The notes beneath the pieces are model-generated. The model had not been told where the DNA came from and made no database searches. It saw nothing but the letters and a program-made list of their open reading frames with translations. Below are positions 9,766-46,139 of a stretch of DNA of 64,000 nucleotides, one piece after another (position 1 is the stretch's first letter; each line of letters begins with the position of its first letter). Location: assembly GCA_965222655.1 (NCBI GenBank), contig CBDCUP010000004.1, forward strand, positions 10,134-74,133, given 5' to 3'. The position numbers and the translations under genes were made by a program. The stretch comes from Acidobacteriota bacterium. GTDB lineage: Bacteria > Acidobacteriota > UBA6911 > RPQK01 > JAJDTT01.

Positions 9766-10633
9766 CTTCCAGAATCTGTCGTGCCTGTCTGACTATGGCC
9801 TCGTCGACCATGGTACCGTCCACGTCGACCACTCCCGCATCCGCAGCAGAGAACGCCTCCACAATGTGCCGCGCCCACTCAACCTCGGCAGCACTCGGAG
9901 AAAAGACTTCATTGATCACGGCAACCTGCGCCGGATGAATGGCAAGTTTTCCCGAAAACCCGAGATTCCGCGCTGCCTGCGAGTGAGCTCGGACCCGAGC
10001 CAGGTCCTTGAACTCCAAACAGGGGGAATCGACAACCTCACATCCGGCAGCCCGGGCCGCGGTCGCGATCGCCGATCTGGCGTAGAGAAGCTCAATCTCC
10101 TCGGAGGTCCTGGCAATGTGCATCTCGGCCGAGAAATCCTCAGCACCGAACATCAATCCTGCTACTCGGGCACAGGAGCTGACCATCTGAAACGCATTCA
10201 GGACGGCTTGCGGAGATTCCATCATCAGATAGATGCGGTGCGGCGCAACTCCCTCTCCATCACCCAGGGCCTGATCGAGGCGCAGCACTTCGTCGACCGA
10301 ACGGCATTTGCTTAACAGTACCCCTTCCGATGGGATCCGCCGAAGAGCGAGGCAGTCTCCTTCGAAGCTTGGACTGTCCGCTGGATTACAGCGGATGAGC
10401 ACTGAGCTGTCGCTGGGGCCGCCAGCCAGCACAAACTCGAGGGACAGCTCCCGCGCCCTCGCCTTGTTCCCGGGCAGCACCGCATCCTCCCAGTCCAGTA
10501 TCAGCACATCGGCTCCCCGCTGCCTCGCTTTCGCCAGTTTGCGCTCGCTGTCACCGGGGACAAACAGATAGCTTCGCCTCATGACCGGCTCCCTGAATAA
10601 TCCTTGTTGCTCAGACCCTCGCTCCCCTATCAT
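9737..10633 (-). CDS. CitE/HpcH family CoA-ester lyase
   Basis: RRSYLFVPGD, LILDWEDAV, FGAEDF, GKLAIHP.Q, DGTMVD. SD GGGAGG precedes the ATG at 10633. Confidence 0.9.
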   Translation of the reverse strand: MIGERGSEQQGLFREPVMRRSYLFVPGDSERKLAKARQRGADVLILDWEDAVLPGNKARARELSLEFVLAGGPSDSSVLIRCNPADSPSFEGDCLALRRIPSEGVLLSKCRSVDEVLRLDQALGDGEGVAPHRIYLMMESPQAVLNAFQMVSSCARVAGLMFGAEDFSAEMHIARTSEEIELLYARSAIATAARAAGCEVVDSPCLEFKDLARVRAHSQAARNLGFSGKLAIHPAQVAVINEVFSPSAAEVEWARHIVEAFSAADAGVVDVDGTMVDEAIVRQARQILEVDRGQRSGR

Positions 10634-30153: not shown

Positions 30154-30285
30154 AGGTCGGGAGGTTCAGCCAAAGTGATGCGGGCCTAATGACCGGCGCC
30201 GTTGACGGCAAGACTGGCGGCGTGGAGAATAGCCCCCACAGAGATCACCCAGACAACTGGAGCTCTTCGAAAAGATAGGACGGAT

Positions 30286-31755
30286 ATGAGTTACGAATAC
30301 GGCGACTTACGGGACTTTATCAGACGATTGGAGCAGTCAGGCCAGCTCACTCGGATTCCGGTGGAGGTGGACCCCATCCTGGAAGTCGCCGAGATCACGG
30401 ATCGGGTCTCGAAGGCGATGGGTCCCGCCCTGCTGTTCGAGAATCTGAAAGGATCGGAGCTTCCTCTTCTGATCAACACCTTCGGCTCCTACCAGCGCAT
30501 GAATCTTGCCCTTGGTGTCGAGGCTCTGAAAGATGTATCTCAGAGAATCGAAGAGCTCCTGGACCTGAAGGCTCCGACCGGAACCTGGGATAAGCTCAAG
30601 ATGCTCCCCCGTTTGACCGAATTGTCTTCCCTCGTACCCAAGACTGTAAACAGGGGTCCCTGTCAGGAGGTGGTGAAGACCGAAGGCTTCTCTCTCCTGG
30701 AGCTGCCCATCATCAAGTGCTGGCCCGGTGACGCCGGACGTTTCATCACGCTGCCCCTGGTATTCAGCCGGAATCCGGCAACGGGAAAACAGAACTGCGG
30801 GATGTACCGGATGCAGGTCTTTGACGAAACCACGACCGCGATGCACTGGCAGGTTCATAAACATGGGGCGCATCACTTTCGCGAGGCCCGGCGGCAATCC
30901 GATCCCGGCGGCGATAGAAAGATGGAGGTTGCCGTGGCTATTGGTGCCGACCCTGCCACCGTCTTCTCAGCTATCGTGCCGCTTCCGGACGACCTCAACG
31001 AAATGATGTTCGCCGGATTTGTTCGCCGCCAATCAGTCGAGATGGTGAGTTGTAAAACTGTGGACATCAACGTACCCGCCAATGCCGAAATCATTCTTGA
31101 AGGGTACGTCAATCTGGATGAAACCCGGGAGGAGGGTCCTTTCGGAGATCACACCGGGTTCTATTCTCTGGCGGACCAATATCCGGTCTTCCACGTCACC
31201 TGCATGACCCATCGTAGGGATCCTATCTATCAGACCATCATTGTTGGAAAACCGCCTCAGGAGGACTGCTATATGGGTCACGCGGTGGAGCAAATCTTCC
31301 TGCCTGTGATCCAGAAACAGCTGCCCGAAATCATCGATATGCACATGCCCTTCGAGGGAATCTTCCATAACCTGGTCATCATCAGCATCCGCAAACGCTA
31401 TCCCGGGCACGCCCGCAAGATCATGAATGCCATCTGGGGAATGGGCCAGGCCATGTTCTCGAAGTGCATCGTGGTGCTGGACGAGGGAGTGAACGTCCAG
31501 GACTATGGCGAGGTCGTCTTGAGAACCTTGAACCACATCGATCCGGAACGGGACATCCAGTTCACGCTGGGACCGGTGGATTCGCTCGATCACTCTTCCC
31601 GGCTACCCAACTTCGGATCCAAGATGGGCATTGACGCTACCCAGAAGTGGCCGGAGGAAGGCTTCCATCGGGAGTGGCCCGAAGAGATCCTGATGACACC
31701 GGAGGTCAGGGAGCGGGTAGACAAACTGTGGCCGAGTTTAGGCCTCCCGGGCTAG
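30286..31755 (+). CDS. UbiD-family decarboxylase (menaquinone futalosine pathway, MqnL-like)
   Basis: GPALLFEN, N.GMYRMQ, EGPFGDHTGFY, KRYPGHARK, SKMGIDAT. Confidence 0.92.
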   Translation: MSYEYGDLRDFIRRLEQSGQLTRIPVEVDPILEVAEITDRVSKAMGPALLFENLKGSELPLLINTFGSYQRMNLALGVEALKDVSQRIEELLDLKAPTGTWDKLKMLPRLTELSSLVPKTVNRGPCQEVVKTEGFSLLELPIIKCWPGDAGRFITLPLVFSRNPATGKQNCGMYRMQVFDETTTAMHWQVHKHGAHHFREARRQSDPGGDRKMEVAVAIGADPATVFSAIVPLPDDLNEMMFAGFVRRQSVEMVSCKTVDINVPANAEIILEGYVNLDETREEGPFGDHTGFYSLADQYPVFHVTCMTHRRDPIYQTIIVGKPPQEDCYMGHAVEQIFLPVIQKQLPEIIDMHMPFEGIFHNLVIISIRKRYPGHARKIMNAIWGMGQAMFSKCIVVLDEGVNVQDYGEVVLRTLNHIDPERDIQFTLGPVDSLDHSSRLPNFGSKMGIDATQKWPEEGFHREWPEEILMTPEVRERVDKLWPSLGLPG

Positions 31756-31919
31756 TGGTGCCACCAGCTGGCGCTGGATCAATCAGGGGAAAGCTTCTCC
31801 AACACCTGCTACGCCGAAGGCGTTATTGCGCGGAGCCCAGACATCTGAGGTTTCAAGTCAAGTGTTTTTTCAAGTTTTTTTTCAGCCGGTTGCATTTTTT
31901 TCCACAGCTTGATTGCTCT

Positions 31920-33173
31920 CTACAAGAAGGCCAGCAAAGGGGCGTTGTTCGCCTTCAAAGAAGCCACATAAATGGCGTCGTCGTAGGGGACCCGGTTCTT
32001 CCAGCAGCGGTAGATTATGCGCAGCCACTTGAAGGCCAAAGAGCGCACCGCGACGTGATGATCTTTCCCTTGGCTGAGCTGCATCTGGTAGAACGCTTGC
32101 GCCCAGGGGCACCAGTGCCGGGAGTGAGCGGCGAATTCGTGAACGCCCTGGCGGACGAACTTGGGACAGGCCCAACGGTAAGACACGATGCGGGTCTTGC
32201 CACTGCTTCGCAGCAGGGGGGCGATGCCGGAGACGGTCTGTACCTCCGCGGCGCATTGGAAACGATCCCGATCCTCCCCAAAGAGAGTTAAGAGCCGCGG
32301 TCCCAGAGCCTTTCCAGAGCCGGGCAGACTGCTGAAAATGAAATGGTCGGGGTGGTGGTTGAAGAGTTCCTCGATTTTGGCATCAAACCGCTGGATGGAC
32401 TCATTCAAGTGCAGGATCTGTCCCGCCAAGCTCTGAGTCATCAGGCTAGCCGCCGTCACAATGGCCGCATCGTGGGTCAGCGCCCGGGCCTGCTTGATCT
32501 CCTCCAGCTTGGAGTGCAACTTTTCGCTGCCCCCCACCCGATGGCTCTTGAGAAAGCGGCGAATCGTGGTCGGCTTGACCCGCTGCAAGGCCTCAAGGCT
32601 GGGCCAACGGTTCAGGAAATCACAGGCCGTCTTCCCTTTGAGCGGGCCGACCCATTTCAGGGCCTGAGGAAAGTAGTTCTTCAAGTTGGCGGTCCACTGA
32701 TTGGTCAAGTCCGCGCGCAGATCGACCAGCTTGCGCCGTTGCTCGGACAACAGGCGCAGGGAGCGCACCTCCGGCGATTCGGGTTCCCACAATCGAATCC
32801 GTTCCCGATGCTTGAGCAGGTAGTCCAGCACCAGATCCGCATCCCTCGGGTCGTCTTTGCCTCCACTGGGATAGAAGGCTCCACGGTAGCGGCTCAAGGA
32901 CTTCGGGTTGATCGGGTAGATCAACACAAAATCGTAATCCATCAGCGCATACAGCAGCGCTCCCCGGCTCTGTTCGACGGCGATCGCGACCCAGCCGCCT
33001 CCGCTCCTTTCTCTCAGCCCGTTGATCCAGCTCTGCAGGGCCTCCGGTGTTTGTTTGACGTCGCCGGTCTCGATTTCGCTCGAGCCCGACATCCGCAGCG
33101 CGTAGGCATGCTCTTGGTCGGCCCAGTCCAGGCCCACCCACACTCCAATGGTCTGCTCCTCAATCGGCTTCAT
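31920..33173 (-). CDS. IS110 recombinase/transposase
   Basis: DEDD RuvC-like domain (GLDWA, AVEQ, KDDPRDA), coiled coil, C-terminal Tnp domain GIAP...SSGK. Confidence 0.96.
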   Translation of the reverse strand: MKPIEEQTIGVWVGLDWADQEHAYALRMSGSSEIETGDVKQTPEALQSWINGLRERSGGGWVAIAVEQSRGALLYALMDYDFVLIYPINPKSLSRYRGAFYPSGGKDDPRDADLVLDYLLKHRERIRLWEPESPEVRSLRLLSEQRRKLVDLRADLTNQWTANLKNYFPQALKWVGPLKGKTACDFLNRWPSLEALQRVKPTTIRRFLKSHRVGGSEKLHSKLEEIKQARALTHDAAIVTAASLMTQSLAGQILHLNESIQRFDAKIEELFNHHPDHFIFSSLPGSGKALGPRLLTLFGEDRDRFQCAAEVQTVSGIAPLLRSSGKTRIVSYRWACPKFVRQGVHEFAAHSRHWCPWAQAFYQMQLSQGKDHHVAVRSLAFKWLRIIYRCWKNRVPYDDAIYVASLKANNAPLLAFL

Positions 33174-33189
33174 GGCTCCTCTCCCCTTC

Positions 33190-33495
33190 TCTGGTGTTTC
33201 GTCGGACGCAAACCGGGGGCGGCGAATTCCTTATAGAAGTCCTCCTGAGCGGACAGCATCTGAGTATTCGTCCAAATCCGGCCCAGGGTCCGTCCGAAAG
33301 TCTGGGCTTAATCGTCCTCCCGATAAGGGTTGGCATTCGTGACGGACCCGAGCGTCCTGGGAGTCGACTATCGAGCTCCCGACTCCACACTTTTGCACAC
33401 CATCCACACCTTCCACAAAGAAAGAAAAAAGTAGCAAAAAAGAAAGAAAGGCGGCTACGGCTACTTGCCGCTCCCATCTTCCCGATCTCAGTACC
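33190..33495 (-). ncRNA. IS110 bridge RNA (boundaries approximate)
   Basis: Guide segments GCCAACCCT, AGCCCAG, CTCAGATG and CTATAAG, in this order, match target-left, target-right, donor-left and donor-right. Confidence 0.85.
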
Positions 33496-33580
33496 TTCCC
33501 AACTATAAGGGTTGGCGATGCGGAGCGAAGCGAGCTACCCTGGGTCAAATTCGTTGATGAAAGTGCGCTACCCTGAAGGG

Positions 33581-35669
33581 GTGCGATGAGCCGCAGTGGC
33601 TCGAACTAAGTCAAACCATGTTAGACAAACGGTGAGGCGTTTGGAAAGGAGGAAATAAAGCGATAAGAGAGGCAAGACGCCGAAGCCTACCTGTGCGAGT
33701 CCACGCTCGTACAGAACTTCCTGCTCGAACTCCGCGATTAACCAGCGGGGGTACGCAGCCAGGGCGCTCCCAACGGCTGGACCGGAAGAAGGGATCGTCA
33801 CGAAGGGGCCAGGCAGGAAGACTTCGGGAGACGGCACTTCGGCCTAGAGCAAAGCGCCAACGACCGCCCTTGAGTGAAGCGTTGGCGAGGTTCCCTGACC
33901 TCGTCTCCAGAGAGAACAGGTGGTTATCTCTCTGGAACTGCTTTGGGTGATACCTGTCGCCGCCTGAGGAAAATGGTTCGAGTCATGACCGGTGAATGTC
34001 CCCCGCCGTCCCCTGTGGGTGAGTCCGCGCTATAAGCCCCCGGTGAAAGGCGACGGATGATGCGGTGGTGCGGAGAAGGCTTCCTGAGCCGCCTCCGCTT
34101 TAGGGATTGCCGCAGAGCCGGAGTACTCCAGTTTCGGCTGGAGGAAAGGTCAAACCGAAGACGAGGTGAGGAAGAATCCTGAGTCTGGGTAGTTAGCGTC
34201 TCGGCCGTGGCCCCCCAAATGGGTCGGCCCGTGCTCTTGTCCGGGTCAAACCGGGAAAACAGACCCCCCAGGGGCCTGGCTAAGAAACACCCGATAGATC
34301 TCCGATCCGCCTCACCTGATGATGCAACAGAACAGGAACACCATGGTGAAGAACAGAAAAGTGCACTCCTTGACCGGTCGCATCACGATCGAGCTCATGC
34401 GTGCCGCCTTTAAGAAAGTCAAGCGCAACCGAGGCGCCGCCGGGGTGGACAAGGTCAGCATCGGGATGTTCAAGGACAACCTCGAACAAAATCTTCTCGC
34501 GCTGATGAAAGATCTTAAATCAGGCGAGTTTCGACCCGTTCCGCTGCGCCGAGTCCATCTCTCCAAGGGGCCTCACACGAAGAAGACCCGGCCGCTCGGG
34601 ATTCCCGGGGTCCGCGACCGCGTGGGCCAGGAAGTCCTGCGACGGCTGCTGGAACCTATCTTCGAGTCGCTCTTTCAGGAAGCCTCCTTCGGGTTTCGTC
34701 CCAAACGCAACTGTCATCAGGCGATCCAGTGGGTGTTGTCCCTTCACGACGCCGGCTACGGCTTCGTACTCGACGCCGACATTGAAGGCTTTTTCGACAA
34801 CATTCCACAAGACGTCATTATGCAGTTGGTGGCCGACAAGGTTGCCGACGGTAATATCCTTCGCCTTCTTCAACGATTTCTCACTGCCGGAGTCATGGAG
34901 GACGGTGTCTTCAAGCCGACCACGGTCGGCACGCCACAAGGAGGGGTGATTTCCCCTCTTTTGGCTAACATTGTCCTTAATCAACTGGACTGGGCTCTCG
35001 ACCGGGCGGGTTTTCAATTTGCCCGGTACGCCGACGACTTCGTCGTCCTGACCCGGTCCGAAAGGCAGGCGCAAGAGGCCTTGGCACTGGTCCAGCTGCT
35101 GCTGGCAACCCTTCAGCTAACGCTGAGTCCGGAGAAAACCCGGATCACGACGTTCGGAAAAGGCTATGAGTTTCTTGGCTTTTTCCTCTCGTCCCGTTCC
35201 CGGCGTATGCGCGACAAGTCCCAGCGGAAATTCAAGGATAAGGTGCGGGAATTAACCGTTCGCCACCATAACCTCGATGCCGAGGCGATCCTGAAATTGA
35301 ACCGAGTGATCAGGGGGACGGCTCAGTACTTCGCCCCCGAGTTCGCGACCAATCGCTGGCTCTTCCAAAAGCTCGACTCCTGGGTCCGTCTGCGACTCCG
35401 GAGTATGAAGCTCAAGCGGAAGAACTACAACGACAATCGCAAACTCAGGGTGGGGTTCTTCTGCCGAAAACTCGGCTTGCTTACCCTTGAAAGCTTCTGC
35501 CTCTATCGCAACACCTATGGCCAAGTCTGTTACGTCGTTCCCCGTCTTGGGGCAACGTCTTTGGGGTCGCCCGGTGAGTGACCCTCACGCCGGTAAATAT
35601 GAGGAATAGACCCCATCGCGACAACGGGGAGGGGCAGGCGGGAACCCCGCCTGTCTCTTACCCGCGTAT
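33581..35669 (+). mobile_element. Group II intron (3' end approximate)
   Basis: 5' GTGCG immediately after the REP sequence, ~740 nt non-coding leader, RT ORF, DV-like hairpin, DVI with bulged A at 35660. Confidence 0.85.
34319..35581 (+). CDS. ltrA: Group II intron reverse transcriptase/maturase without En domain
   Basis: N.GAAGVD, RPLGIP..RDR, SFGFRP, DADI..FFD, GTPQGGVISPLLAN, RYADDF, X/thumb domain LNRVIRG..YF. Confidence 0.96.
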   Translation: MMQQNRNTMVKNRKVHSLTGRITIELMRAAFKKVKRNRGAAGVDKVSIGMFKDNLEQNLLALMKDLKSGEFRPVPLRRVHLSKGPHTKKTRPLGIPGVRDRVGQEVLRRLLEPIFESLFQEASFGFRPKRNCHQAIQWVLSLHDAGYGFVLDADIEGFFDNIPQDVIMQLVADKVADGNILRLLQRFLTAGVMEDGVFKPTTVGTPQGGVISPLLANIVLNQLDWALDRAGFQFARYADDFVVLTRSERQAQEALALVQLLLATLQLTLSPEKTRITTFGKGYEFLGFFLSSRSRRMRDKSQRKFKDKVRELTVRHHNLDAEAILKLNRVIRGTAQYFAPEFATNRWLFQKLDSWVRLRLRSMKLKRKNYNDNRKLRVGFFCRKLGLLTLESFCLYRNTYGQVCYVVPRLGATSLGSPGE

Positions 35670-35930
35670 TGCCGACCGGAAACGCTTTTGCAACAACGCT
35701 TGCAGCGTAGAAAAGGCAGGCGGCTTGAACCCAGGGTAGCTCGCTTCGCATTGCAACCCTGGGCTACGCGCAGTAACACCTTCGGCGTAGGGATGCCTCC
35801 TGAAATCAGGCAAAGCTTCTGTCTCGAACGGGGCCAGTGCTTCCTGGGGTTGGGACTACGTCTGAAACTTCCTTGCATACGTATGCTTGAAGACGCGTCG
35901 AGCAAGTAGCCGTCAGGAGAAGCTGGTGCA

Positions 35931-45881: not shown

Positions 45882-46139
45882 CAACCCCAACGGGGTTGCG
45901 GCGTACAGCCCAGGGTTTCTGAACCCTGGGTAAAGAGCCATCCCTTTTGATCCCATCCCTTTTGATCCCAACCCTGTAGGGGTTGTGGCCTCCTACTTCA
46001 ACCGGTGTGCGATTGCGCCCTGGTCCTCACCTTCCGCAATCCCTGCAAGGTTGATCTCCTAAGTCATCGGACTTGATTTATCCTGCGCATCCCAGGGTTC
46101 GGAACCCCTGGGCTATAGGACACAACCCCCTTGGGGCTG
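45882..46139. repeat. Uninterrupted REPIN of the CCCAGGGT/ACCCTGGG family
   Basis: CAACCCCAACGGGGTTG, AGCCCAGGGTT..AACCCTGGG and the inverted partner arm. Internal tandem CCATCCCTTTTGATC x2. Confidence 0.8.

Follow-up and report, generated by a model that had tools for sequence, protein, structure and literature searches.

We analyzed a stretch of 64,000 nucleotides (positions 10,134 to 74,133 of contig CBDCUP010000004.1, forward strand) from the assembly GCA_965222655.1 of an Acidobacteriota bacterium, which is referred to below as the window. Its minus strand contains an insertion sequence (IS) of the IS110 family (31839..33509) that, taking all analyses together, is very likely a functional member of the IS110 subgroup moving by bridge-RNA-guided recombination. 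The principal lines of evidence are (i) the anatomy of the element, (ii) its copy number in the genome, (iii) the spectrum of its insertion sites, and (iv) a conserved RNA structure in its left end, in which the guides covary with the flanking DNA.

The edges of the element were set by 26 full-length copies (at least 99.58% identity) in differing flanks and by empty sites of the type ..CAACCCTGGGCT in the genome. Counted with the CT core on either side, it spans 1,671 bp (1,669 bp and a single CT), and this core was found at both junctions in all copies listed. In the minus-strand reading, the element starts with CT-TATAGTTGGG and ends with ..TTGACTTGAAACCTCAGATGT-CT, flanked by ..CGCATCGCCAACC on the left and GGGCTCCGCG.. 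on the right; its ends CTTATAGT.. and ..CAGATGTCT are not inverted repeats. At the left junction, a script located the left target half GCCAACC (33516..33510), which is part of an interrupted palindromic repeat, followed by CT (33509..33508) and TATAGT (33507..33502); at the right junction it located CTCAGATGT, CT (31840..31839), and the right target half GGGCT (31838..31834). As read from the sequence, the segment 33502..33509 combines the core with TATAGT, which would serve as the right donor half and as the −10 half of a junction promoter, and ends of the form C(T/C)TATAG are common to most orthologues. The left donor half, CTCAGATGT, lies in the right end (31839..31919, 81 nt), which also holds TGTGGAAAAAAA (31895-31906), an A-rich stretch, and a −35 box TTGACT (31856-31861) ahead of the terminal CT (31839-31840). 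The noncoding left end comprises 334 nt, or 336 nt with the core, and the only long open reading frame (ORF) of the element (31920..33173, minus strand) encodes a recombinase of 417 amino acids.

Guides and conserved structure of the predicted left-end RNA

Four guide strings are found once each and in order within the 336-nt left end, at the positions and with the polarity proposed in an initial annotation of the window. These are the left target guide GCCAACCCT (33326-33334), which matches the left target half plus core at 9 of 9 positions; the right target guide AGCCCAG (33302-33308), complementary to core plus right target half (7/7); the left donor guide CTCAGATG (33257-33264), which matches the left donor half (8/8); and the right donor guide CTATAAG (33230-33236), complementary to core plus right donor half (7/7), all on the minus strand. 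In each loop, the 5′ side corresponds to the top strand of the left half plus core and the 3′ side complements the core plus right half, the same guide polarity as experiments revealed for IS621 (PMC11208160). When the left end was simulated 200,000 times with a first-order Markov model, the four strings appeared at frequencies of 8e-4, 0.019, 0.003, and 0.007 (product of ~3.5e-10), and two or more of them occurred together in 0.019% of the simulations.

Single-sequence folding returned the two modules as predicted, with the guide strings in internal loops. The target-binding loop (33286..33349, minus strand) is closed by the stem GGGTCCGTC/GACGGACCC and contains ACGAAT, the two target guides, and between them the inner hairpin ATCG/CGAT (33311-33324), which had already been noticed as a small stem beside the left target guide. 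The donor-binding loop (33213..33284, minus strand) has the closing stem GGGCCGG../..CCCCCGG, the sequence ACGAAT-A, the donor guides, and the inner hairpin GTCC..GGAC (33239-33254), so that both modules begin with ACGAAT. The dinucleotide AC that follows the right target guide (33300-33301) complements a donor GT and is a candidate handshake guide; the target C beside the core is complementary to the G that follows the right donor guide. Both placements fit the handshake-guide positions described by Hiraizumi et al. (PMC11208158). In the fold of the whole left end, a stem-loop GGAGTCG..CGACTCC (33360..33386, minus strand) is predicted just upstream of the target-binding loop, at the place that the 5′ stem-loop occupies in the published consensus (PMC11208160).

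One feature of the guides did not prove to be special. The left donor guide had been described as offset by one base from the core, and the RNA indeed reads C after CTCAGATG where the donor has T. In 65 orthologue RNAs, however, this position is occupied by T (35), C (17), A (11), or G (2) opposite a nearly constant donor T, indicating that it is unconstrained. It is the same position as left-donor position 7, reported as mismatch tolerant in the IS621 screen (PMC11208160), and the offset is best described as a mismatch at a tolerant core-adjacent position.

Relatives of the recombinase were retrieved in two scans. Matches with an E value of 1e-30 or better were present in 13 of 401 genomes of the same phylum, its own genome included, the best sharing 50% identity. 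A second scan, in which each species was represented by a single genome, returned 542 confirmed relatives, among which the best 80 show 42 to 52% protein identity; most are from metagenome-assembled genomes (MAGs) of Acidobacteriota, the others being labeled Gemmatimonadota, Verrucomicrobiota, Planctomycetota, Myxococcota, cyanobacteria, and more. No relative exceeded 52% identity in the collections searched. More than 80 orthologues share donor ends and RNA scaffold, and the donor guides are conserved along with the conserved element ends. For two multicopy orthologues (G393 and G166), the ends were mapped independently by copy-to-copy comparison: both share the ends CTTATAGTTA.. and ..TTGAC(T/G)..GCTCAGATGTCT and the scaffold (ACGAAT, left guide, hairpin, right guide, ACTTTCG) with the window element, but their targets differ. 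G393 is inserted at ..CAAGGCGC|CT|CCCGC and has the guides TCAAGGCCCC and GCGGGAG (right flank CTCCCGC), and G166 is inserted at ..CTCTGCCA|CT|ACA and has the guides CTCTGCCAC and TGTAG.

A covariance model (R1) was built from 18 orthologue RNAs, that of the window element included. It yielded 91 matches in 95 sources, nearly all just upstream of a recombinase gene; its sole match in the window (33207..33353, minus strand; 96 bits, E = 1.4e-17) is partly so by construction, as this sequence is in the seed. RNAalifold detected compensatory changes in 22 of the 30 consensus pairs of the 18 seed sequences. Across 78 distinct model matches, 96.4% of the cells pair and 26 of the 30 pairs show double changes; this level of pairing was reached by none of 500 shuffles, and slid controls paired at 27 to 45%. 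Double changes occurred in 11 of the 12 pairs of helix 1, the stem of the target module, and helices 2 to 5 of the donor module covary as well. Together with the fold and the location of the modules, these changes bear out the proposal of an IS621-type left-end RNA with target- and donor-binding loops.

The check that had been proposed for this reading, namely, that guides should covary with flanks in homologues, was carried out and passed. The conserved donor motifs C(T/C)TATAG and CAGATGTC(T/C), which do not depend on the target guides, were the sole means of placing element ends, and the target guides of each RNA were compared with its own flanks and with those of all others, three registers being allowed in both sets. 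There were 75 nonredundant rows, of which 46 provided a left and 41 a right flank. The left target guide matched its own flank at a mean of 6.98 of 8 positions (n = 46), compared with 4.00 of 8 in 2,064 cross-pairs; 17 rows scored 8/8, and 16, 9, 3, and 1 rows scored 7, 6, 5, and 4, respectively. The corresponding means for the right target guide were 4.44 of 5 (n = 41) and 1.45 of 5 (1,626 cross-pairs), with 26 rows at 5/5, 8 at 4, 6 at 3, and 1 at 2. The rows are related, so the trials are not independent; the guides themselves differ.

A further set of relatives (L066, L068, L069, L071, L085, L118, and L033) has a CC core, with ends CCTATAG.. and ..CAGATGTCC, a right target guide terminating in GG, and CTATAGG as right donor guide. 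Judged from these sequences, they represent a natural reprogramming of the core with matching guide changes. On one contig of a Verrucomicrobiae MAG, two equal-scoring bridge-RNA matches lie ~570 bp apart on opposite strands (L110:548-714, minus; L110:1281-1447, plus), an arrangement that suggests two copies of a related IS placed head to head.

Recombinase, genomic copies, and target repeat

The assignment of the protein to the IS110 recombinases, also made initially, agrees with all searches. Pfam detected PF01548 (DEDD_Tnp_IS110; E = 3e-25) at residues 13 to 169, covering profile positions 1 to 155 of 155, and PF02371 (Transposase_20; E = 6.9e-9) in the C-terminal part; the NCBIfam model NF033542, "IS110 family RNA-guided transposase," scored 143.8 bits against a cutoff of 140. 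The protein would consist of a DEDD RuvC-like domain (residues 13 to 169), a long coiled coil with a helical insert (~134 to 273), and a Tnp domain (280 to 363) with Ser324. Solved relatives detected by phmmer were only IS621 (E = 9e-9) and ISCro4. Residues D16, E67, D108, D111, S324, and G325 are invariant in eight orthologues. Based on their positions and without a residue-level alignment, D16/E67/D108/D111 are taken to be equivalent to D11/E60/D102/D105 of IS621; in the phmmer alignment, the SG of ..RSSGK.. is aligned to the SG of IS621 ..YESGS... For IS621 the residues are named S241/G242 (PMC11208158), and matching this numbering assumes an offset of two residues in the PDB chain.

An AlphaFold (AF2) model built on eight orthologues (mean predicted local distance difference test score [pLDDT] of 85.9) was compared with known structures using Foldseek. 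The top 10 hits were all IS621 and ISCro4 chains (E = 1e-12 to 2e-11, ~18% identity, target-normalized template modeling score of 0.56 to 0.58), the best being IS621 8wt9 (E = 1e-12), and TasR and Nop5-type proteins ranked next. In the model, the excess in length over IS621 (326 amino acids) falls mostly in a helical insertion at the coiled-coil tip (approximately residues 168 to 235). The length of 417 amino acids, initially singled out as special, is not unusual, since family members range from 300 to 460 amino acids (PMC11208160).

The assembly of 9.47 Mb contains 26 full-length copies with 99.58 to 100% identity, 13 of them identical, in differing flanks. Ten further copies comprise three with a miniature inverted-repeat transposable element (MITE) in the leader, one with an internal deletion, four of a 93% variant, and two truncated copies of 91% identity. 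The same 436-codon open frame is kept in 29 copies. The element is hence intact, as first proposed, and in addition has been active recently. The two truncated copies (C21:629856-631197 and C1:170-1511) have identical flanks on both sides, one of them lying at a contig end, and may be an assembly duplicate or a segmental duplication. The MITE, of ~317 bp, is inserted in the T-rich tract of the leader (element positions ~79 to 87) with a duplication of 8 to 9 bp; the three insertions (G000 C20:13234-13550, C22:563046-563363, and C22:1653315-1653630) are outside the window. It ends in terminal inverted repeats with the sequence GGTTCATCCGGTAAATGGGGAGGTG and its reverse complement, and 268 BLAST pieces of it occur in the genome. 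Because two MITE subtypes are involved, at least two independent insertions took place at the same spot of the leader.

Nearly all copies split a palindromic repeat, ACCCAGGGTAGCTCGCTTCGC..CAACC|CT|GGGCTACGCGCAATAACGCCTTCGGCGTA, the cut being in the 3′ arm of the hairpin CCCAGGGT/ACCCTGGG. The repeat has the consensus ACCCAGGGTAGCTCGCTTCGCATTGCAACCCTGGGCTACgCGCAaTAACGCCTTCGGCGTA with two hairpins, its 5′-arm motif occurs 128 times in the genome, and 96 empty sites ..CAACC-CT-GGGCT were counted. These copy flanks, the consensus, and the motif count confirm a target in a palindromic high-copy repeat. The label REP (repetitive extragenic palindrome) under which this repeat was first reported applies to the many-copy palindromic unit but can be used only descriptively, since no association with REP-associated tyrosine transposases (RAYTs) was detected: there are 19 PF01797 matches in the genome, and only 1 of the 18 checked had a copy of the repeat within 800 bp.

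The left heptamers next to the 30 master-type copies are GCCAACC (22 copies, as at the window element), TGCAACC (3), ACCAACC (2), and TCCAACC, CTCAACC, and GGAAACC (1 each); on the right, 29 copies have the pentamer GGGCT and 1 has GGGAT. The repeat has two subfamilies, with 13 empty sites of the GCCAACC type and 81 of the TGCAACC type. Master-type copies occupy 22 of 35 sites of the GCCAACC subtype, which the guide matches perfectly, compared with 3 of 84 TGCAACC sites (Fisher P = 4e-12). A target-encoded stem-loop adds specificity in ISPpu10 (PMC12288879; 10.64898/2026.03.19.712850). No obvious hairpin was visible by eye at 2 of the 30 master-type sites (C18:1038715 and C22:1202697), and a structural requirement is therefore not evident here.

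Four high-identity copies (C18:362850, C19:251233, C19:273367, and C22:563450) and all four copies of the 93% variant have G in place of C at position 177, within the left target guide, which then reads GGCAACCCT. The four high-identity carriers are all at GCCAACC sites and none at the subtype to which the changed guide would be better suited, three of the four 93%-variant copies are at TGCAACC sites, and the three master-type copies at TGCAACC sites carry GCCAACCCT. A link within the genome between this guide variant and the sites of its carriers was accordingly rejected. Such unlinking would be expected if the RNA acts in trans among ~35 copies, with which it is compatible without lending support.

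In the window, the repeat and the IS lie directly downstream of an ORF (30202-31755, plus strand) for a UbiD-family decarboxylase (UbiD_N, UbiD, and UbiD_C), the repeat copy beginning past its stop codon. On the other side, 0.8 kb from the IS, an ORF of 420 amino acids (34319-35581, plus strand) matches RVT_1 (E = 1e-35) and GIIM (E = 2e-8) and probably encodes a group II intron protein. Just past this reverse-transcriptase ORF, 2.2 kb from the IS, there is an empty target repeat of the TGCAACC subtype (35754-35765, plus strand), and a copy of the repeat with one mismatch, AAACCCTGGGCT, is at 45907-45918 on the minus strand.

Putative junction promoter, proposed mechanism, and alternative explanations

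When right and left ends are joined, the −35 box TTGACT (31861..31856) comes to lie 17 nt from TATAGT, so that a circle junction would create TTGACT-17-TATAGT, as the initial annotation had stated. Of 39 nonredundant orthologues, 32 have a −35 box at this junction, defined by agreement with TTGACA at 5 or more of the 6 positions and a distance of 17 nt to the −10. We propose the following sequence of events, modeled on IS621. (i) The element would excise as a circle. (ii) The promoter formed by the joined ends would transcribe the left end. (iii) The transcript would fold into two loops, one binding the target (GCCAACCCT ... AGCCCAG) and one binding the donor (CTCAGATG ... CTATAAG). (iv) The 417-amino-acid DEDD/Ser recombinase would bind this RNA, one loop pairing with the circle junction and the second loop with the target ..GCCAACC-CT-GGGCT, which lies in the 3′ arm of a repeated genomic palindrome. 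(v) Strands would then be exchanged at the CT core. Transcription, RNA binding, and circle formation are thus expected features of the element, and its programmability would follow from its family membership.

Several observations weigh against this proposal. (i) The fold is only modestly more stable than those of shuffled sequences, with z scores of −1.95 (core of 166 nt) and −0.97 (left end as a whole). (ii) The covariation counts come from related sequences in an alignment fitted to the model, and in the guide test 29 of 75 rows (left) and 34 of 75 rows (right) were dropped for lack of an exact end motif or because of a contig edge. (iii) The guide polymorphism within the genome does not track the insertion site. 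(iv) The circle junction string has no match in the assembly, and no back-joining junction was found in the assembled contigs of four sequencing runs, which can show neither rare forms nor transcription. (v) A simple scan called no sigma-70-like promoter in the integrated left end, leaving expression from integrated copies unexplained. (vi) Rfam returned no matches at E values up to 1 over 31500-33900; as Rfam gave no match to any bridge-RNA family, this result says nothing against the RNA.

The run contigs stem from a set of 24 listed public runs, 16 of which contained at least half of the sampled words; four were compared as contigs (the RNA libraries X15 and X16, together with X10 and X1). 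The element is present in them, including on a contig of 1,791 nt in an RNA library. A joint in X10 that skips 1684 (depth 8, side 22, nine other letters between) was considered as an excision product and rejected, as it resembles another empty copy of the repeat. Since all this material consists of assembled contigs, it provides no evidence either way on circles or transcription.

Three alternatives to a functional bridge-RNA element were weighed. According to the first, the element is a bridge-RNA IS110 that is now inactive in this genome, through a fossil burst or silencing of recombinase or RNA, and its copies record past activity only. The missing circle junctions and promoter call would fit this view, as would the MITE insertions in three leaders and the copy with an internal deletion. 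We nevertheless consider it improbable, given that 13 copies are 100% identical, that the full open frame persists in 29, and that 13 perfect target sites are still empty, as expected for ongoing transposition at a low rate and not for saturation; moreover, weak expression from integrated copies is the norm reported for IS621 (PMC13626964). The second alternative, protein-only site-specific recombination in which the left-end strings are DNA binding sites or relics instead of an RNA guide, draws on the fact that no RNA was observed and, again, on the lack of a called promoter. It is very hard to reconcile with guide strings situated in internal loops of helices that show compensatory changes, which indicate constraint on an RNA and not on duplex DNA, with a guide polarity matching the experimentally shown mechanism, and with a recombinase that folds like IS621, and we give it little credence. 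Finally, an element of the IS1111 subgroup (seekRNA type), in which the recombinase gene is followed by the guide RNA, would belong to the same superfamily (PF01548/PF02371) but has next to no probability here, as the right end has only 81 nt and holds the −35 box, whereas the R1 match, the structured RNA, and all four guides are in the 334-nt left end upstream of the gene.

Leader motifs and relation to known systems

The left end opens with a leader of ~140 nt, and the target-binding loop starts 156 nt past the core (51 to 374 nt in relatives). The long 5′ extension with a U-rich tract described initially is indeed present and is conserved in a subset of relatives. The segment 33385..33471 (minus strand) comprises a hairpin GCGGC..GCCGC (33451-33471), a CU-rich tract of 34 nt (33417-33450), and a block GTGGAAGG/TGTGGA/TGTGCAAAA (33385-33416), the latter reading GTGGAAGG-TGTGGATGG-TGTGCAAAAG. 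Closely similar CU tracts occur in relatives whose proteins are only 45 to 50% identical (L033, L109, L082, the G393 type, and L032). The motif TGTGGAA was found 29 times in 18 of 43 leaders, compared with 0.7 in shuffles and 1 in a coding-sequence control, and is also present in the right end of 8 of 39 orthologues, the window element included (31895-31906). Motifs of the type TGTGGA(A/T)AA recur on the same strand in the leader and right end of the clade; some right ends, that of the G393 type among them, carry TGTGGATAA.

Three readings of the leader were tried and are unsupported. (i) For a terminator, the hairpins in relatives are short by eye and the U run is broken by C; a simple scan called only one terminator-like site, inside the coding sequence, and did not call the leader hairpin with the CU tract. 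(ii) When the whole left end is folded, the CU tract pairs with AGAGAAGGGGAGAGGAG, which lies upstream of the ATG. As to an anti-Shine-Dalgarno role, orthologues with and without a CU tract are not set apart by their purine content near the start codon, which amounts to 13 to 17 of 17 in the former and mostly to 11 to 17 of 17 in the latter (two truncated rows are lower). (iii) A relaxed DnaA box, TTWTNCACA, a pattern that the TGTGGA(A/T)AA-type motifs fit, occurs in 14 of 43 leaders. As to a reading of TGTGGAAAA/TTTTCCACA as DnaA boxes, the boxes do not cluster near dnaA, with 2 in 12 kb and no 500-bp bin holding more than 2. Most of the 350 genomic copies of TTTTCCACA probably derive from the MITE, as judged from the MITE sequence and not from a count.

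As a tentative suggestion, which we hold to be doubtful, the leader and the right-end TGTGGAAAAAAA might form a clade-specific control module that gates the expression of bridge RNA and recombinase from the circle. Such a module could rely on a host factor that binds DNA or RNA, or the CU tract could pair with the purine-rich ribosome-binding region. If true, leader control would add a level of regulation that is not described for elements of the IS621 type. A related idea concerns only the relatives L033 (G084), L104, and L108, in which a single donor loop is preceded by a tandem pair of target-binding-loop modules. In L104 and L108, the left guides of the two modules differ (CGCAGAGCC or CGCGGAGCC versus CGCGTTGCC or TGCGTTGCC) and the right guides are nearly the same; the flank of L104 fits the second module, and that of L108 fits the first-module type better. 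Two target-binding loops may give one element two target specificities. A literature search on two or tandem target-binding loops returned nothing relevant.

The reference system for these comparisons is IS621, the Escherichia coli bridge recombinase (PDB 8WT6-8WT9; Durrant et al. 2024, PMC11208160; Hiraizumi et al. 2024, PMC11208158). Both elements have (i) a DEDD RuvC-like domain, a coiled coil, and a Tnp domain with a catalytic Ser; (ii) a CT core, a junction promoter across the core (putative in the window element), and insertion into a palindromic repeat; (iii) a left-end RNA with a 5′ stem-loop, target-binding loop, and donor-binding loop; and (iv) a 9-nt left target guide that includes the core, along with, according to the published description, a mismatch at the core-adjacent left-donor position. 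They differ in that the proteins are only ~18% identical when aligned by structure and match weakly in sequence (E = 9e-9), with 326 amino acids in IS621 and 417 in the window element. The right target guide of IS621 is reported to have 4 nt, whereas that of the window element naturally has 7 nt; the right donor guide is discontiguous in IS621 and a contiguous 7 nt here; and the left end of IS621 has 191 nt, in contrast to 334 nt with the ~140-nt leader, CU-rich tract, and TGTGGAA motifs. The engineered bridge recombinases of the ISCro4/IS622 type (PDB 9T56; 10.1101/2025.05.14.653916) are of the same kind and fold (Foldseek E = 4.7e-12) but are only ~17% identical to the window element. ISPpu9 and ISPpu10 of Pseudomonas putida (PMC12288879; 10.64898/2026.03.19.712850) are likewise multicopy IS110 elements inserted at one position of a palindromic, intergenic repeat; for ISPpu9 an extra small-RNA gene has been reported downstream, whereas none was seen at the window element.

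Knowledge of IS110 elements that target REPs dates from 2003 (Choi et al., cited in PMC11208158), and thousands of orthologue RNAs were predicted earlier, with 5,511 target pairs (PMC11208160). We found no literature on IS110 bridge RNAs in Acidobacteriota; the element or its clade may be in the orthologue tables of Durrant et al. In its proposed mechanism, architecture, and core, as in its putative junction promoter and its targeting of a repeat, the window element conforms to IS621 and its relatives, described in 2024, and by sequence it is a distant clade member. Only the leader motifs and the double target-binding loops of three relatives might go beyond the known picture, and the current understanding of the mechanism is unchanged by this element.

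Bridge recombinases are under development for programmable DNA insertion, inversion, and excision, for which working orthologues are useful. The window element is a reasonable candidate for such a tool, with a natural record of its specificity in the form of 30 master-type insertions set against 94 scored empty sites (13 GCCAACC and 81 TGCAACC) and with its naturally long right target guide of 7 nt. Its clade, which extends across several phyla, keeps its donor ends and changes its targets and is in this respect a natural counterpart of target reprogramming.

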